Shown piece by piece: positions 2,006 to 44,732 of a DNA stretch of 64,000 nucleotides (within the stretch, counting starts at the first letter, position 1; each line of letters begins with the position of its first letter). Below the pieces are notes generated by a model. The model searched no databases. It saw only the letters and a program-made list of their open reading frames with translations, and was not told the origin of the DNA. A program made the translations under genes and the position numbers. Where the stretch lies: positions 340,208-404,207 of the forward strand of contig MGEI01000005.1 of assembly GCA_001791305.1 (NCBI GenBank). Direction: 5' to 3'. This DNA comes from Candidatus Uhrbacteria bacterium RIFCSPLOWO2_01_FULL_47_17 (GTDB lineage: Bacteria; Patescibacteriota; Patescibacteriia; UBA9934; GWF2-40-263).

Positions 2006-3856
2006 CTAGTAGCCTGTGACTCCTTGAGCTGTGAGATCGCGGAGTTCTTGTGCCCATTTCTTGCGATCGCTATCTGCGTTTTCCGGATCCGGAAGCAGCG
2101 AGCGACGCGTGGTGTTCATGTAGGCCTGAAGGGTCTGAAAGCGACGCGTGGTTGCAATGTCTGCAGGGAGCTGATCATGAATCACCGCGAGTGCATCCTG
2201 AAGCGTTGCATCTTTCTTGCGAATGATGAGCGCTTCGAGTTCTGAGCCAAGCAATTGGAATGCTCCAGCCGAATAGCCTTTCAAAGCATCTTGCACCTGT
2301 TTCCATTCTTCCCCTTCCCGATTTGGGATGAGGTGTTTGATGGGGCGAAGCGTGAGCTCGATGAAATCATCGTAATCTTCTGCGATCGGATCATCCATCG
2401 GAATCACAATACTGAGACGCCCGGGCCTGCGCATGTCGGGCGAGAGCATGTGAAAGCGTGCGGTCATGAGGAGCCACACCACTTTTCCGCGCAAGCGCGG
2501 ATCCGCCATCCATCCCTGAATCGTGCCTGTCAGACGGCGTTCGGATTCGTGGGCGTTTGGTCCGACGCCACCGAAAACCGTATCCGCTTCATCAACGAGA
2601 ACCATCACTTTCGCAAGCGACTTCAGGACGCGATACAACTTTTCGATGATCACGTCTGTTTGTCCGAACCATTGCGAGCGGATATTTTTGAGGACAAGAA
2701 CCGGCATGCCGACTTGTGCCGCAAGCCCTTCAAAGACGAAAGACTTTCCGCCACCGATAGGTCCTGCAACACCCATGCCCGTTACCGCATCTTTGCCAGT
2801 TGATTGGATGCGACAGATGAGCTCATCCACAAACAATGCTTTGATCTTTCGACAACCGACCACATCCGCAAGCGAATGCATGGGTTGTTTGAACTCGACA
2901 ACGTCTTCACCAAGCTGGGACTTGATGTAGATTTCCACCCGCTTGATCACATCTTTCAACGTGACGGGGGACTTGTCATGAATCGCGCCTTTCAAGAGCT
3001 GACCGAGTGCCTGCAAGTTGAGGCCGGCCGTGTACGTCGCGAGTGTCTCTTTCGTGCTCCAAAGCGGCAACATACCGCTCACCTTCGCCGCTTCAAACCA
3101 CTCAATGAAATGCATGCGCGCGGTTTCATCCGGCGCCGGAACTTCCACTTTCATGACTTGCGGGAGTGATGTGAGACGACTGTTCATGAGGCCGATCGAT
3201 TCCGTGAGCAATACGACGGCATTGCGACCATGCGTGAAACTCGGATCTGAGAACCAATCCTGACAGATGGACAAACGCAGTCGATCGATTTCGGACAGAC
3301 GCGAGATTTCCGCTTCGGGAAGAAGCATGTCCGCCCATTCGATGATGATGATCAGCCGACTTGGCTTGACCACGTTGTTGTCATCCGTATCTTTGAACGT
3401 GATCGGAATTTGGCAGAAGGACCGCAGCAGCTGAAGTGCATAGGCGGGCCGTTCCAAACTCGTTTTCATCGAAAGATCGAAAGAGGTACCTGGCTCATCG
3501 AGCTTTTTGCGATCTGTATCCGTTGCCGTGAGTTGCATGAGGGAAAGCATACTTGCATCCATCCCCATTTTTGCCGCAGCCCAAGCATCGCGTACACGTT
3601 TTTTGTCTCCCTCGTTTACGAATCGAATTTGACGATTGGGTTCGTACACGATCGGAATGATGTCCGGACGGTCCCCCCACTTTTTCGTGAGATATTCCGT
3701 GAGGCTGATGTACTTACCATTTTTCCCTTCCGTCTTTTCAGGGAGAAAAAACAGGTCATGCACATTGCCGGAGAGTACAACAGAGCTCGATTGCCCTGAG
3801 TTCAAAATGCGATTGATCTGTGAACGGAACGGATGGTCGAATGTCTGATCGATCAT
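2006..3856 (-). CDS. AAA+ family ATPase with a large N-terminal domain (616 aa), translationally coupled to the ABC ATPase gene
   Basis: Walker A GPIGGGKS, Walker B VLVDEAD, and a sensor/arginine-finger region MTARFHMLSPDMRRPGRL. Its start overlaps the stop of the upstream ABC ATPase by 4 nt. Confidence 0.7.
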   Translation of the reverse strand: MIDQTFDHPFRSQINRILNSGQSSSVVLSGNVHDLFFLPEKTEGKNGKYISLTEYLTKKWGDRPDIIPIVYEPNRQIRFVNEGDKKRVRDAWAAAKMGMDASMLSLMQLTATDTDRKKLDEPGTSFDLSMKTSLERPAYALQLLRSFCQIPITFKDTDDNNVVKPSRLIIIIEWADMLLPEAEISRLSEIDRLRLSICQDWFSDPSFTHGRNAVVLLTESIGLMNSRLTSLPQVMKVEVPAPDETARMHFIEWFEAAKVSGMLPLWSTKETLATYTAGLNLQALGQLLKGAIHDKSPVTLKDVIKRVEIYIKSQLGEDVVEFKQPMHSLADVVGCRKIKALFVDELICRIQSTGKDAVTGMGVAGPIGGGKSFVFEGLAAQVGMPVLVLKNIRSQWFGQTDVIIEKLYRVLKSLAKVMVLVDEADTVFGGVGPNAHESERRLTGTIQGWMADPRLRGKVVWLLMTARFHMLSPDMRRPGRLSIVIPMDDPIAEDYDDFIELTLRPIKHLIPNREGEEWKQVQDALKGYSAGAFQLLGSELEALIIRKKDATLQDALAVIHDQLPADIATTRRFQTLQAYMNTTRRSLLPDPENADSDRKKWAQELRDLTAQGVTGY

Positions 3857-28213: not shown

Positions 28214-28612
28214 TTATAAATCATCCAAATCTAAAATGCTTATTGGTTTATCTTGTTCTATTTTTTTGAGGCGGATGAGGAGGACGCCTTTTTTCAGAAC
28301 GGCGTCGACGGAATTTGGATCCACGTGACTCGGGAGAATGATGGAGCGCGAAAACGCACCCCAGTGACATTCTTGCACGTGTGTTTTTCCGCGTGCGAAT
28401 TCCGAAATTTCATGTGCACGCGTCCCGCGGATGGTGAGTGTATCTTCGTGAAGCGTAATGTCAAGATCTTCTGCGTTTACGCCTGCAATTGCGGATCGCA
28501 CAACAATTTCGCGCGCAGTTTCCATCACATCAACCGAAAGCTGGCCTTCATTTTGGGCAAACCAAGAAGCATCGGTGAAATCATTTTGGATGTGCTCACG
28601 AAGCGGTGACAT
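28214..28612 (-). CDS. Hsp20/alpha-crystallin family small heat-shock protein
   Basis: ACD core (VDVMETAREIVVRSAIAGVNAEDLDITLHEDTLTIRG, then GAFSRSIILP...AVLKKGVLLIRL). Confidence 0.8.
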   Translation of the reverse strand: MSPLREHIQNDFTDASWFAQNEGQLSVDVMETAREIVVRSAIAGVNAEDLDITLHEDTLTIRGTRAHEISEFARGKTHVQECHWGAFSRSIILPSHVDPNSVDAVLKKGVLLIRLKKIEQDKPISILDLDDL

Positions 28613-28625
28613 AGATAACTCTATT

Positions 28626-29417
28626 TTACCCGTTTTTTTTCTCTTGCGCCAGCGTTTCCATCTTTCCCGAAACCGACCAAAGCAGTTCGAAGATTTGTTC
28701 GATCATCTCGCGAATGGTTTTGCTTGTGATCATCACGTGCGAGCCTTCGGATTTAGTCGAGAAAATGGCGACCGTGTCGTCCCAGAAGAGGATTGAGGCT
28801 TGGAATGAGAGGTCGGCGGGAAGAAATCGAGCTTCACGTAATTCTCGAGCATGCGTTGCGGAGCTGTACTGTTTAATTTCCTGTGATCGCACACGCAAAC
28901 TTTTCAATTTAATTCCTTTTTGTACACGTCGCTTCGAATAATGGAATTTTTCTCCAATAACATCTTGAAATTCTTTTGCCGAGACAATCTCATAAACGAT
29001 TTTCGATTTTGCGTTCAAGGATTCATTGAGAATATCCGTCACACGTTCGCGCTCGAAAATCTTAATGCGAGCCTGTTCGAGCGTTTCTGTTTTGAGTGAT
29101 GCAAGGAGGGGTAAAATTCCCGCAACAGATTTGGCCTGTTCGGTCAGAAGCGTTTTGAAGACGTCTGGGTGGTGTGCTTGAAACACGCTGCGTGATTTAT
29201 TTTTTGTGACATCAACTACGCCTTTCTTTACGAGGCGCTGCATTGTGGACTGGATTGTAGTGACAGGCAGGGAGAGTTTTCGAGAAAGGGGAGTGAGTGT
29301 CGTGGAACCCATCTCGAGGAGCGCAAGGTAAACATACTCATCTTTTGGATTGAATCCAAAGCTGGTAAGAACCTCGGTGATTTCTTGTTTTTGTTTGGAA
29401 GTGAATGTGTTTGGCAT
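28626..29417 (-). CDS. TrmB-family transcriptional regulator
   Basis: N-terminal wHTH (YVYLALLEMGSTTLTPLSRKLSLPVTTIQSTMQRLVKKGVV) and a TrmB-like C-terminal region. Confidence 0.55.
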   Translation of the reverse strand: MPNTFTSKQKQEITEVLTSFGFNPKDEYVYLALLEMGSTTLTPLSRKLSLPVTTIQSTMQRLVKKGVVDVTKNKSRSVFQAHHPDVFKTLLTEQAKSVAGILPLLASLKTETLEQARIKIFERERVTDILNESLNAKSKIVYEIVSAKEFQDVIGEKFHYSKRRVQKGIKLKSLRVRSQEIKQYSSATHARELREARFLPADLSFQASILFWDDTVAIFSTKSEGSHVMITSKTIREMIEQIFELLWSVSGKMETLAQEKKNG

Positions 29418-29611
29418 ATGAAAATACTAATTACGAAAAAAATCGTAACAAATTTTTGCATCTTCGTCAACCAATTTAGCAAAATTTTGTTGAATACAAA
29501 ATAAAACTGCGAATTTTTATCGCGTAAAGCGTTCACCTCGATTATTCTGTCGTTGTGAGTGATCGAACGCGGTCGCCCACACGGAATTGTTCCTTACAAC
29601 AGAGGTGAATC

Positions 29612-29872
29612 ATGAAAGTTTTGCGAAAGGGCCGGCCGCAAAGCGGTTGGGCTTCGGAGTTCGAGTGTACGGGCAAGGGCAATGGTGGCGGCGGGTGCCG
29701 TGCGAAGCTGCTTGTTGAGTTCTCGGATCTCTACAAGACATATCATGAGTCTTATGACGGCAGTCGTGAAACATACGTGACATTTCAATGTCCCGAATGC
29801 CATATTCAAACGGATATTGATTACCGTGGACCGGGTTACAGCCTGATTCCAGATCGTCGGAGGGTGTCGTGA
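29612..29872 (+). CDS. Zinc-ribbon microprotein, paralogue 1 (86 aa)
   Basis: Starts MKVLRKG; Cys pairs C..C(RAKLLVEFSDL) and CPEC. SD agaggtg. Confidence 0.5.
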   Translation: MKVLRKGRPQSGWASEFECTGKGNGGGGCRAKLLVEFSDLYKTYHESYDGSRETYVTFQCPECHIQTDIDYRGPGYSLIPDRRRVS

Positions 29873-30117
29873 AGTTGCTCAAGAAAGGCTCCAAGTTATG
29901 GAAGTCTGAATGTGTTTGTAAGGGGTGTGGCTCAAGACTCCTGGTCGAGTTTTCCGATCTGAAGCGTTTGACGTATGTCGGTGAGGATGAAGATTTTGTG
30001 AGTTGTTCCCAAACGTTTACCGAAATCTTTTTCATCTGTTCTGAATGTTCGCACAGGAATCTCATCAAGGTTGATCTGAATCCTTCGGACATTCCGCGCG
30101 TAAAAGGATCTTTATGA
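29869..30117 (+). CDS. Zinc-ribbon microprotein, paralogue 2 (82 aa)
   Basis: MKLLKKG, CVCKGCGSRLLVEFSDL, CSEC. The GTG start overlaps the TGA of paralogue 1 (GTGA). Confidence 0.5.
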   Translation: MKLLKKGSKLWKSECVCKGCGSRLLVEFSDLKRLTYVGEDEDFVSCSQTFTEIFFICSECSHRNLIKVDLNPSDIPRVKGSL

Positions 30118-30551
30118 TTCTCACCGTCGACATTCTGGTCACGATCGCACAAAAAGACGTTCTTCTCATTCGCCGTGCAAAGCACCCATTCGAAGACAGA
30201 CTTGTGATGCCGGGCGGACACGTTGAAGACGGAGAAGAACTCTGTGAGGCGGCGGCGCGGGAGCTTGAAGAAGAAACACGACTGACCGTTTCTTCGAAAG
30301 ACCTCTCGCCGCTCCTCGTCCTTAATGCGATCGATCGCGATCCTCGTCCTGGCCGTCGCGTTTCCTATGTGTTCTGGATCGACCTTGTTGATCGGACATT
30401 GGTTGAGACGTGTCGCGCCGAGAGTGATGCGAGAGAGATTGTGATTCGATCAATCGATTCGCTTGTCGAGTCGGAGATCGGGTTCGATCACTGGCTCGCG
30501 CTCGAAAAAATGAAAGAGGAGATTGCGCATGAAAGTGCTCGAGTATCCTGA
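30114..30551 (+). CDS. NUDIX hydrolase
   Basis: Nudix box GGHVEDGEELCEAAARELEEETRL. The ATG overlaps the stop of the preceding gene (ATGA). Confidence 0.8.
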   Translation: MILTVDILVTIAQKDVLLIRRAKHPFEDRLVMPGGHVEDGEELCEAAARELEEETRLTVSSKDLSPLLVLNAIDRDPRPGRRVSYVFWIDLVDRTLVETCRAESDAREIVIRSIDSLVESEIGFDHWLALEKMKEEIAHESARVS

Positions 30552-30780
30552 CATGACTTGGACAGAAGAAGTGGTATGCAAAAAATGCACTTCGCGGCTT
30601 CTCGTAGAGATACCAGACATTCTGCGTGAGAAATACCAACCTTTTCGATTCTACGCGAACTGTCCTGTCTGTCATGAATCCGTCTTCGCCGTGAAACCAC
30701 TTCCTTGGTACGTCGAGGCACACGCGCGAGGAAATCATGTTGGTTGGCCACCAGGAAAACACCCAAAACCACGAAACTAA
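30529..30780 (+). CDS. Zinc-ribbon microprotein, paralogue 3 (about 83 aa)
   Basis: MKVLEYP, CKKCTSRLLVEIPDIL, CPVC. SD gaggag; overlaps the 3' end of the Nudix gene. Confidence 0.5.
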   Translation: MKVLEYPDMTWTEEVVCKKCTSRLLVEIPDILREKYQPFRFYANCPVCHESVFAVKPLPWYVEAHARGNHVGWPPGKHPKPRN

Positions 30781-30815
30781 ACCCGAGAGGTTCACTCTCG
30801 GGTTCTTTTTTTTGA
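30781..30815 (+). terminator. Rho-independent terminator after the ZnR/Nudix operon
   Basis: aaacccgagaggttcactctcgggttctttttttt. Confidence 0.55.
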
Positions 30816-30859
30816 CGGCTCATGCGCTTCATGATACAGTCGCACGTACGGAGGTTCCT

Positions 30860-31579
30860 ATGAACGCACCTTTGACGAGCGAAACGTTTCGAACAATTCT
30901 TCGAACGTTCAGTGAAGACTGTTCGTTCATGAGTCTCTCGCACATGTGGCGAAAAAAACCAGAGTTTGCCGAATTGCTTGCATGGGCTCAGAAAAATAAA
31001 CCATCGAGTCTTACGATCTTGTTTGAAGAAATCGAAGCCTGTGGATGGCAAGCACTCGATTTGATTCATGCTTTGCTTGGTGAAAAGCATGAAGTCTTGT
31101 CGGAAACGTTTAGCATGCAGAATAATTACGATCAGAAAGTTTTGCGTTTATATCGTTTCGCCATGCGACAAGGATACAACACACCAAAGATTTTTACCGC
31201 GTATAGTATTCTTCATCAGAAGTTGAAGGTTGAACGTGAAATGGAACGAGTGATTGCGGATTTGGATTATCGTCGAGCAAATCGCACGTGGAAAAATTTG
31301 GATTGGATTCGTGTGCGTAAAAAATTCATGCGCATCGCCAAAAAATACCCCGCTCGATTTTTTGACTGCGCGTTGAATCACCACTTGCTTTTGAGAGGAT
31401 TCCGTTCAGTAGAACCGGATGCGGAATTGGTTCAACTTCTTTCTGATGTGATGGCGACGATCATTCCTGCGCCACCGAAACTTGCGCGGGCAAAAACCCC
31501 CGCAGAAATCTACTACGCGTGGTTTCGACGAAACAGTCATGACGACGAAGGAAATTACACCGGCTTCACCAAGAACTGA
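30860..31579 (+). CDS. Hypothetical protein (about 240 aa)
   Basis: Start MNAPLTSETF (M42 of the listed ORF). No recognisable motif. Confidence 0.45.
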   Translation: MNAPLTSETFRTILRTFSEDCSFMSLSHMWRKKPEFAELLAWAQKNKPSSLTILFEEIEACGWQALDLIHALLGEKHEVLSETFSMQNNYDQKVLRLYRFAMRQGYNTPKIFTAYSILHQKLKVEREMERVIADLDYRRANRTWKNLDWIRVRKKFMRIAKKYPARFFDCALNHHLLLRGFRSVEPDAELVQLLSDVMATIIPAPPKLARAKTPAEIYYAWFRRNSHDDEGNYTGFTKN

Positions 31580-43964: not shown

Positions 43965-44732
43965 ATGAAAAATCCCGAATCATTTTTGCAAAGTCTCGGA
44001 CTCACCCAGACAGAATCCACGGTGTATCTCGCAGGACTTTCACACAACGGAACAAACGCGCAGGCGCTCGCAAAACAAACGGGCATCAAACGCCCGACCG
44101 TTTATTATGCGCTTGAGACGCTTATGCAAAAAGGATTGGTAACAAAAAAGGGCGTGGGGAATCGCCGTGTGTATTCCATGACGTCGCCCGAGAATCTGAA
44201 GACATTTGTGGATGCGCAGATTTCGGAAATGCAAACCAAAAAACAATCCCTCGACGGATTTGTCGAAACACTTTTGAAACAACAGGGTGTGGTCACGCCA
44301 ACATCGAGTGTCTCGCACTATGAGGGGATCGAAGGCGTGAAGCTTGTTGTCGAAGAAGCGCTGTACTGCAAGTCGCGTCACTGGGATATTCTCGCACCAA
44401 AGAAAAATTTCTTTTCCGAGTTTGATGCCGAATACGCAAAGTACTACCTCGATGCACGCAAGCGTCGACGTATCACATCACGTTCGCTTTGGGAGAAAGT
44501 AGGAGGGAAGTCGTCTGTGTCTCGTGAAGTGATCGCCGAGCGCCAGCCAAGATACTTGCCAGAGGTGATGTCTGGTCGATTTCAGTCTGTGATGATTCTG
44601 TTTGACGATAGGGTTCTGTTTATCTCGTCGTACAAGTCATTGTCCGCGATTCTCATCCAGTCCGACGAAATGCATCAGTTTCTCCTCGCGATGTTCGATG
44701 GTTTGTGGGCGGGGGCGGAGAAGATTGGATAA
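43965..44732 (+). CDS. TrmB-family transcriptional regulator
   Basis: wHTH TVYLAGLSHNGTNAQALAKQTGIKRPTVYYALETLMQKGLV; paralogous to the 28626 gene. Confidence 0.55.
   Translation: MKNPESFLQSLGLTQTESTVYLAGLSHNGTNAQALAKQTGIKRPTVYYALETLMQKGLVTKKGVGNRRVYSMTSPENLKTFVDAQISEMQTKKQSLDGFVETLLKQQGVVTPTSSVSHYEGIEGVKLVVEEALYCKSRHWDILAPKKNFFSEFDAEYAKYYLDARKRRRITSRSLWEKVGGKSSVSREVIAERQPRYLPEVMSGRFQSVMILFDDRVLFISSYKSLSAILIQSDEMHQFLLAMFDGLWAGAEKIG

Follow-up and report, generated by a model that had tools for sequence, protein, structure and literature searches.

What do three paralogous, cysteine-rich microproteins do beside the Nudix hydrolase with which they share an operon? The question is raised by a stretch of 64,000 nucleotides (nt) from Candidatus Uhrbacteria bacterium RIFCSPLOWO2_01_FULL_47_17 (contig MGEI01000005.1, positions 340,208 to 404,207 of the forward strand), referred to here at its full length as the window, in which an earlier note made from the letters alone had drawn attention to three small genes of zinc-ribbon (ZR) type interleaved with a Nudix gene. 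The Candidate Phyla Radiation (CPR, or Patescibacteria) holds a large share of bacterial diversity, and its members have tiny genomes and rely on salvaged nucleotides. The majority of the small proteins conserved among them are unstudied. We find that the link between the ZRs and one Nudix subfamily is not due to chance but recurs in both directions, whether the search starts from the microproteins or from the enzyme.

Architecture of the operon

The sequence and its open reading frames (ORFs) bear out the arrangement described earlier, three paralogous microproteins around a Nudix enzyme with overlapping gene ends, at the following coordinates:

29612..29872, + strand: g1, ATG start, 86 amino acids (aa); ZR microprotein of the widespread 'type A', with a Cx9C Gly-rich first knuckle
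29869..30117, + strand: g2, GTG start, 82 aa; lineage-specific ZR paralogue
30114..30551, + strand: Nudix, 145 aa; Pfam NUDIX, of the ZR-linked, ADP-ribose-pyrophosphatase-like subfamily
30529..30780, + strand: g3, ATG start, 83 aa; ZR paralogue of 'type C'
30780..30814, + strand: intrinsic terminator with a 10-bp stem followed by a T-run; the stem begins at the final base of the g3 stop codon

The g1 stop and the g2 start overlap in GTGA, the g2 stop and the Nudix start overlap in ATGA, and g3 starts 23 nt within the 3' end of the Nudix gene in a different frame. Every one of the four cistrons is preceded by a Shine-Dalgarno sequence. Together, the overlaps, the individual Shine-Dalgarno sequences and the terminator therefore define g1-g2-nudix-g3 as a single bounded operon. 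It is plausible that the four cistrons are translationally coupled, as the earlier note proposed: the 4-nt overlaps are confirmed, and Nudix and g3 overlap by 23 nt in the nearest orthologous locus too (L019), which comes from another Uhrbacteria metagenome-assembled genome (MAG). A programmed frameshift fusing the Nudix protein to g3 was considered and is unlikely, as the g3 frame is shut by a TGA at 30511-30513 and no slippery run lies beyond it.

The g2, Nudix and g3 proteins correspond to the hypothetical proteins OGL71797.1, OGL71796.1 and OGL71795.1 of the matching Candidatus Uhrbacteria bacterium RIFCSPHIGHO2_02_FULL_47_44. Neither the NCBI nor the UniRef protein set of these MAGs contains the g1 protein, yet no other member of the cassette is as well conserved. 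A small gene seems to have been overlooked in the annotation.

A large family of zinc-ribbon microproteins

The three microproteins are true and ancient paralogues. In pairwise BLASTP comparison they match one another with E-values of 4e-9 (g1/g2), 3e-10 (g2/g3) and 7e-6 (g1/g3), and a hidden Markov model built from all three, run against the ORFs in all six frames of the 64-kb window, matches just these three, with a next-best E-value of 0.05. Synonymous sites are saturated between the paralogues (proportion of differences, pS, 0.80-0.93) and the duplications are therefore old. The shared motifs reported earlier, namely the MK(V/L)L start, LLVE(F/I)xD(L/I) and a C-terminal CxxC, are present in all three proteins. 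The description of the first Cys pair needs revision in one detail: it is a CxxC in g2 and g3, but in g1 it is a Cx9C that encloses a Gly-rich loop (CTGKGNGGGGC).

Measured against L019, the ratio of non-synonymous to synonymous substitution (dN/dS) is 0.22 for g1, 0.20 for Nudix and 0.33 for g3, showing that these genes are under purifying selection. Orthologues of g3 occur in P0021 (64% identity) and in L019 (59%), where the copy also follows the Nudix gene with the same overlap. Among 307 family sequences g2 has no orthologue above 39% identity, and none outside its own lineage, so that the order gene 1, gene 2, Nudix, gene 3 is not supported as a conserved layout.

A profile search yielded 99 ZR clusters at 90% identity, to most of which g1 is 50-71% identical. 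An exhaustive search of 1.84 billion representative proteins extended the family to 1,116 clusters (50% identity) at E<=1e-3, 536 of them at E<=1e-10. In an alignment of 95 ZR sequences C19 and C29 never vary and C60 and C63 reach 90% conservation or more, confirming that the microproteins are conserved together with their four cysteines. The AlphaFold2 model of g1 is all-beta with five strands and a mean local confidence (pLDDT) of 86. From the cysteine pattern and this model, g1, g2 and g3 are predicted to be C4 zinc ribbons, an assignment at the level of structural class.

No Pfam or NCBIfam model recognizes the ZRs at threshold: the best Pfam E-values are 0.005-0.6, under the cut-offs, and NCBIfam gives no match. 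Weak but consistent matches were obtained to the phage protein profile PHROG 2834 (E 2.3e-5 for g1, 1.8e-4 for g2 and 3.2e-4 for g3). In support of this relationship, g1 is 45% identical to an unannotated protein of a cultured phage, gp141 of Sphingobium phage Lacusarx (ARK07537.1), and the g1 model superposes on the BFVD model of gp141 with an E-value of 9e-7 and a template-modelling (TM) score of 0.75. The ZRs thus constitute a large family without a curated model, found mainly in Patescibacteria and with some members in phages.

Several ZR subtypes can be told apart: type A, which is g1-like with the Gly-rich knuckle; one that precedes type A in L019 and L024; type C, which is g3-like; and type D, which begins MKVIKEGKWN and carries a conserved ...KKRKYxSSxW(D) tail. 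A locus holds one to four ZR copies in variable order, and the ZR also occurs as an N-terminal module joined to many different unrecognised C-terminal extensions. The fixed stoichiometry inferred in the earlier note finds no support, as both the number of ZRs (1-4) and their subtypes vary by lineage, and their order differs even in the nearest relative.

Two further sequence features of the family were noticed. The type-D tail, (K/R)(K/R)xY-x-SS-x-W(D), stands at the extreme C-terminus in P0268, P0275-P0277, P0285 and P0363 as well as in L025 (1313-1561) and L133 (2088-2363), and on its sequence it resembles a docking or recognition peptide. An LPxKxxW motif is frequent in type-A ZRs and corresponds to the linker helix in the model of a ZR-Nudix fusion.

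Recurrent association and fusion with a Nudix subfamily

Membership of the Nudix subfamily was defined by a score of at least 125 bits against the subfamily profile (A6), or by truncation at a contig end. Among 30 genome loci seeded on ZRs, a Nudix of this subfamily lies directly downstream of or is fused to the ZR in 17, and another type of Nudix adjoins or is fused in four further loci. The reciprocal test used seven long contigs retrieved by exact-protein look-up of the Nudix and picked irrespective of ZRs; six of them have one to four ZR genes between a TrmB-like gene and the Nudix. A metagenome scan with back-translated patterns retrieved mostly generic Nudix genes from other phyla. The sole in-subfamily Nudix in that scan (179 bits) has a ZR upstream, as against none of the 79 generic Nudix loci (<=96 bits).

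The strongest evidence for the association comes from natural gene fusions. Thirteen of the 120 top subfamily members (~11%) are ZR/Nudix fusions of 222-236 aa, and these occur in both orders. The ZR precedes the enzyme in P0259, P0306, P0326, P0147 and P0349 (P0259, for example, is a ZR(A)-Nudix fusion) and follows it in P0268, P0363, P0275-7, P0285, P0312 and P0319 (P0268 being Nudix-ZR(D)). A ZR is also fused to a second kind of nucleotide hydrolase, an ITPase/XTPase-like NTPase_I-T domain, in P0128 and P0237. The predicted structure of the natural fusion P0259 has a pLDDT of 94.7 and a predicted TM score (pTM) of 0.73.

With these data, the association of the microproteins with the Nudix stands, and it does so in both directions and with the backing of fusions. 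The earlier note had named three findings as damaging to it: microproteins that are not conserved, a lack of the Cys pairs, and a Nudix gene commonly found without them. None of these turned up.

The remaining Nudix-seeded contig, L129, is a natural deletion variant. This Uhrbacteria-type contig keeps the Hsp20-VanW genes, the Nudix and a GGCATGATG promoter box (2880-3430), and is without TrmB-like and ZR genes.

The Nudix enzyme

The 145-aa protein is a member of the Nudix superfamily (Pfam NUDIX, E 5.8e-18, 65.6 bits against a cut-off of 21.1 bits). Its Nudix box, GX5EX7REUXEEXGU in consensus, reads GHVEDGEELCEAAARELEEETRL and departs from the consensus only in the final Gly, which is replaced by Arg. 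R49, E50, E53 and E54 of the box are invariant across the subfamily alignment. Judged by these residues, the enzyme appears catalytically intact; its matches make it ADP-ribose-pyrophosphatase-like. Its best matches are the NadM-Nudix models of NCBIfam (E 7e-13) and, in both sequence and structure, PDB entries 2qjt, 2qjo, 3gz8 and 2fml, so that its nearest known relatives are the NadM-Nudix ADP-ribose pyrophosphatase domain and the ADP-ribose-bound Nudix domain of NrtR. The clade of ADP-ribose pyrophosphatase Nudix enzymes is the one presumably labelled COG1051.

All scores against NCBIfam equivalogs are far under the cut-offs. The enzyme is likewise no NudC: no NudC-type match in Pfam or NCBIfam rises above noise (NF001299, 21.6 bits against a 158-bit cut-off), and SQPWPFPxS, which we take to be the downstream signature of NudC, is absent from the window Nudix.

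In the Falkowbacteria-type loci L032 (3821-4756) and L044 (5442-6167), the ZR-linked Nudix has a Cys-rich C-terminal extension that ends ...CPACGIQCPKPKIG or ...CPYCGKLLTSPIEE. The ZR profile does not match this extension, which may be another zinc module.

A divergent TrmB-like regulator and its candidate operator

The most constant neighbour of the ZRs is a gene for a TrmB-like regulator, which the earlier note had missed along with its palindromic site and with the frequent occurrence of ZRs without Nudix. The following features make up the regulator gene and the region between it and g1:

28626..29417, - strand: TrmB-like winged-helix regulator 'c1', 263 aa; Pfam TrmB; divergent from the ZR operon
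29432..29447, no strand: perfect 16-bp palindrome TACGAAAAAAATCGTA (TACGA-N6-TCGTA), candidate operator, 15 nt upstream of the regulator start codon
29508..29524, no strand: second, imperfect palindrome TGCGAATTTTTATCGCG, just upstream of the ZR promoter region; putative function, proposed from sequence
29543..29548, + strand: -10-like hexamer TATTCT, putative promoter of the ZR operon
29589..29600, + strand: conserved leader motif GTTCCTTACAAC, directly upstream of the g1 Shine-Dalgarno sequence

The N-terminal winged helix of c1 is recognized by Pfam TrmB (E 4.6e-12, 46 bits against a cut-off of 25.6 bits), and c1 aligns with the TrmB chain 3qph across residues 11-158. Residues ~90-263 match no Pfam domain, and the C-terminal sugar-binding effector domain of TrmB was not detected. 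Against the NCBIfam equivalogs TrmB and TrmBL1, c1 scores 19-28 bits, compared with cut-offs of 600-650. Of the 30 ZR-seeded loci, 27 have a homologue of the regulator in divergent orientation ahead of the first ZR, the remaining three being cut at this point; so do six of the seven Nudix-seeded loci. The intergenic distance between regulator and ZR is usually 160-190 bp and amounts to 194 bp in the window.

TACGA-N6-TCGTA has a single exact match in the window. It is found in 23 related loci, once in each apart from an extra, far-off copy in L022, and in all loci whose regulator-ZR intergenic region was mapped it lies within that region or at its edge, beside the regulator start. None of the 79 unrelated Nudix loci contains it. 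A palindrome that is fixed in position and conserved over class-level lineages is strong evidence, at the level of sequence, for a candidate operator, and we infer that it is bound by the regulator.

The elements nearer to g1 also have counterparts elsewhere. A TACGAAAA half-site stands at a position equivalent to that of the second palindrome in other loci and is present in 18 of 24 intergenic regions. The TATTCT hexamer was not called by a consensus promoter scan; other loci have a conserved GGCATGATG / TATAAT / TATAGT box equally far from their first ZR start, and the hexamer aligns with it. Most leaders of first ZR genes, in different lineages, contain a variant of YTCNTTACAAC. The layout of the leader (29543-29611) is conserved, with the -10-like box, a 5' hairpin of variable sequence, GTTCCTTACAAC and the Shine-Dalgarno sequence in succession. 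Rfam returned no relevant match at E<=10 in 29300-30900.

A second, distant TrmB-like paralogue is encoded elsewhere in the window (43965-44732, + strand; phmmer E 3.4e-10). There is no ZR gene and no TACGA-N6-TCGTA near it.

Flanking genes

On its downstream side the regulator gene is followed by a small heat-shock gene:

28214..28612, - strand: Hsp20 gene, separated by 13 nt from the regulator gene upstream of it, same orientation; Pfam HSP20, E 2e-17

The Hsp20 gene is probably co-transcribed with the regulator. Next in the window comes a 616-aa VanW/PG_binding_4 protein, and the order regulator-Hsp20-VanW is found in the Uhrbacteria-type loci L017, L019, L020, L022, L029, L130 and L131. 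In L001 (1-3800) the genes after the regulator encode a 200-aa protein, GroES and GroEL. Chaperone genes, whether Hsp20 or GroES/GroEL, are co-oriented with the regulator in Uhrbacteria-type loci only. The notion of a general heat-shock regulator in an hrcA-like position was rejected, since the downstream genes elsewhere encode a methyltransferase, a DUF218 protein, a Germane-domain protein and a sigma-factor-like protein.

Nearby Hsp20 or GroESL genes, and the resemblance of the UUCCUU-ACAAC motif to an anti-Shine-Dalgarno sequence, gave rise to the idea that the g1 leader is an RNA thermometer or otherwise sequesters its Shine-Dalgarno sequence. This too was rejected, as unsupported: the predicted pairing probability of the Shine-Dalgarno sequence is 0.478, compared with 0.481 in shuffled leaders, only 10 of 24 loci are above their control, and Rfam gives no match.

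Beyond the terminator, the ORF list of the window contains a 280-aa ORF at 30737-31579 (+ strand). Because the ORF as listed spans the 3' end of g3 and the terminator, its true start is probably the ATG at 30861, behind a GGAGG. It has no match in Pfam, PHROG, NCBIfam or PADLOC and no homologue among the related loci. A promoter-like site precedes it at 30812-30840, and it may be an orphan gene with a promoter of its own.

Some contigs with a typical CPR cassette (L026, L027, L017 and others) are recorded as Acutalibacteraceae, Vicinamibacterales or 'uncultured Gammaproteobacteria'. These labels probably reflect bin contamination or placeholder taxonomy.

Possible function of the cassette

In other lineages, the regulator-ZR cassette includes a bona fide adenine phosphoribosyltransferase (APRT; 215 bits against a cut-off of 125 bits). 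In L028 (1166-3022) and L031 the ZR is followed by an unrecognised 244-aa protein and a divergent ribose-phosphate-diphosphokinase-like (PRPP-synthetase-like) protein, which at 89 bits is under the 113-bit cut-off, with no Nudix. Together with the ITPase-like fusion, these genes form a recurring theme of purine-nucleotide/ADP-ribose salvage or sanitation. The nucleotide-related role that the earlier note had thought conceivable fits such neighbourhoods.

We tentatively favour, at a little under an even chance, a reading of the locus as a TrmB-repressed operon for nucleotide salvage or sanitation, in which the ZRs are partner subunits of nucleotide hydrolases. According to this model, g1-g2-nudix-g3 would be transcribed from a promoter in the 194-bp intergenic region, and transcription would end at 30780-30814. 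The TrmB-like protein would repress both its own transcription unit and the divergent operon via the palindrome at 29432-29447, and the weaker site near the promoter would add to this control. The ZR microproteins, made in a coupled manner, would contact the Nudix and join it as assembly, regulatory or substrate-targeting subunits. The cassette as a whole may serve the salvage and sanitation of purine nucleotides or ADP-ribose in organisms that depend on salvage.

Several observations weigh against this model. In roughly one CPR locus in three the ZRs have no Nudix beside them (L024, L025, L035 and L037 are examples; L046, also counted here, ends just past its ZRs), and all 11 phage-like loci have a ZR without a Nudix; the ZRs therefore have a function that is independent of this enzyme. 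Conversely, L129 has kept its Nudix and lost the regulator and the ZRs. The variable copy number and order of the ZRs argue against one fixed complex, and the pTM of 0.73 for the P0259 model does not prove a fixed interface. The ZR fold gives no significant match to solved or characterised structures. The median isoelectric point (pI) of the ZRs is 7.6 and thus near-neutral, so that targeting to nucleic acids is not obvious. Finally, the substrate of the Nudix can be guessed only from the relatives of the enzyme.

A bolder form of the model, to which we give a small chance, makes the ZRs exchangeable adaptor subunits throughout the phylum, in CPR bacteria and phages alike, which in trans or as fusions would join varied nucleotide hydrolases and direct them to their targets, under the control of a TrmB-like metabolite sensor. 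The hydrolases would be the ADP-ribose-type Nudix, the ITPase-like NTPase and others; possible targets are NAD-capped RNA and ADP-ribose-derived signalling or damage products, and the sensor could detect a ribose-phosphate or a nucleotide metabolite. If true, this would be a modular 'adaptor plus hydrolase' system without a described counterpart.

The competing explanation that survives best, unlikely as we consider it, is that the ZRs are autonomous small regulatory or binding factors that form the core of the regulon, for instance by modulating transcription or translation or as partners of the TrmB-like regulator itself. The Nudix, the APRT and the PRPP-synthetase-like gene would then be co-regulated passengers without a physical link. 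The pairing of regulator and ZR (27 of 30 loci) is indeed more constant than that of ZR and Nudix (17-21 of 30), there are ZR-only operons (L024, L025, L035, L037), and the ZR module is found on many unrecognised C-terminal extensions. The neighbours of phage-borne homologues are a mixture of early, replication, DNA-modification and nucleotide-metabolism genes with no recurrent or fixed enzyme partner. In profile comparisons the ZRs also match the TFIIE-alpha zinc ribbon weakly (E 0.06-1.6); these matches are, however, not significant and cover only a generic CxxC knuckle, and the near-neutral pI does not suggest a nucleic-acid binder. Without functional coupling, it is difficult to account for the recurrent Nudix fusions in both orders and for the fusion to another kind of nucleotide hydrolase.

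We regard as improbable a virus-host conflict module common to CPR bacteria and phages, in which ZR adaptors and the Nudix destroy or edit molecules derived from NAD+ or ADP-ribose (immune signals, NAD-capped RNA or the ADP-ribose set free by NADase effectors, for instance). This explanation would account for the phage-borne members of the family (in phage genomes, that of Sphingobium phage Lacusarx among them, in IMG/VR contigs and in PHROG 2834), for the fast turnover of paralogues and for the variable partners. The enzyme belongs to the ADP-ribose-pyrophosphatase type, and for Nudix domains of phages a role in processing ADP-ribose from NAD+-centred conflicts has been proposed (PMC7824862). 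However, the CPR cassette shows stable synteny, its companions being housekeeping genes and a dedicated regulator, and is not located in defence islands, and its neighbours are an APRT and a PRPP-synthetase-like gene. Those of its genes that have orthologues are under purifying, not diversifying, selection. PADLOC finds no defence system, its sole match being the generic Nudix domain PDC-S07.

A toxin-antitoxin-like module, in which small proteins neutralise one toxic component, had been suggested in the earlier note and is suggested by small, overlapping, translationally coupled genes, but we consider it very improbable. Scans with Pfam, NCBIfam and PADLOC reveal no toxin family and no PADLOC system, the cassette comprises four genes and varies in its number of paralogues, and the dedicated regulator is encoded divergently, outside the operon of small proteins. 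Phylum-wide conservation, stable chromosomal synteny with core genes and purifying selection are further points against it, and the fusion of putative partners in one polypeptide is untypical of such pairs. That the small ORFs, which are short, Cys- and Gly-rich and tandemly duplicated, are chance ORFs or precursors of ribosomally synthesised and post-translationally modified peptides is practically out of the question in view of hundreds of homologues with an invariant four-Cys pattern, a dN/dS of 0.2-0.3, a confidently predicted beta fold over the whole domain, sequences without a leader-plus-variable-core pattern and a neighbourhood without a maturation enzyme.

The present work defines a microprotein family of more than 1,100 clusters (50% identity) that lacks a curated model, together with a specific enzyme partner, backed by fusions in both orders, and a dedicated regulator with a 16-bp candidate operator. 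Where there were anonymous 'hypothetical proteins', there is now a hypothesis for whose testing a few recombinant proteins and a single DNA probe would suffice. The cassette also offers a concrete case of a gene absent from the NCBI annotation in g1, its most conserved member.

Comparison with known systems

Nothing in Pfam, NCBIfam, PADLOC, Rfam or the literature searched describes this type of operon, in agreement with the earlier note. Individual components do resemble known systems. For the regulator, the best comparison is with the sugar-sensing regulators of the TrmB family: the winged helix and the following dimerisation helix of c1 match, and c1 is divergent from the operon that it presumably controls, with a palindromic candidate site. 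In contrast to these regulators, the C-terminal half of c1 has no recognisable sugar-binding domain. The Nudix domains at the C-terminus of NadM-Nudix and in NrtR are the best matches of the enzyme in sequence and structure, and the Nudix box is intact; the present Nudix differs in having neither the nicotinamide mononucleotide (NMN) adenylyltransferase domain of the one nor the DNA-binding domain of the other. PHROG 2834 is matched, weakly, by all three ZRs of the window, and gp141 of phage Lacusarx by g1. Unlike the CPR genes, the phage ZRs are single genes among small early-type genes, with neither a TrmB-like regulator nor an adjoining Nudix.

By analogy, NudC may be the closest precedent for a ZR as a partner subunit of a Nudix enzyme. 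The zinc motif of NudC plays a part in dimer formation, and residues in the motif make contact with the substrate (PMC5034116). NudC and the other Nudix enzymes that contain a zinc ribbon of their own, PDB 3cng among them, share with the present system the combination of a C4 zinc module (at least two beta-hairpins) and a Nudix domain, and Foldseek aligns the natural ZR-Nudix fusions with them over both domains, with a high root-mean-square deviation. In contrast to NudC, the ZRs have no detectable sequence similarity to zf-NADH-PPase or any Pfam zinc ribbon and are mostly encoded by separate genes, of which there are one to four paralogues; they can lie on either side of the enzyme. The present Nudix lacks the NudC-type signature and falls into the ADP-ribose-pyrophosphatase clade, and the cassette has a dedicated TrmB-like regulator. 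Zinc-ribbon-assisted Nudix enzymes as such are thus already known. What sets the present case apart is an uncurated ZR family unrelated to theirs by sequence, present as separate multi-paralogue genes and occasionally fused to either side of the enzyme, with a dedicated TrmB-like regulator and a candidate operator, and spread over the Patescibacteria and into phages.

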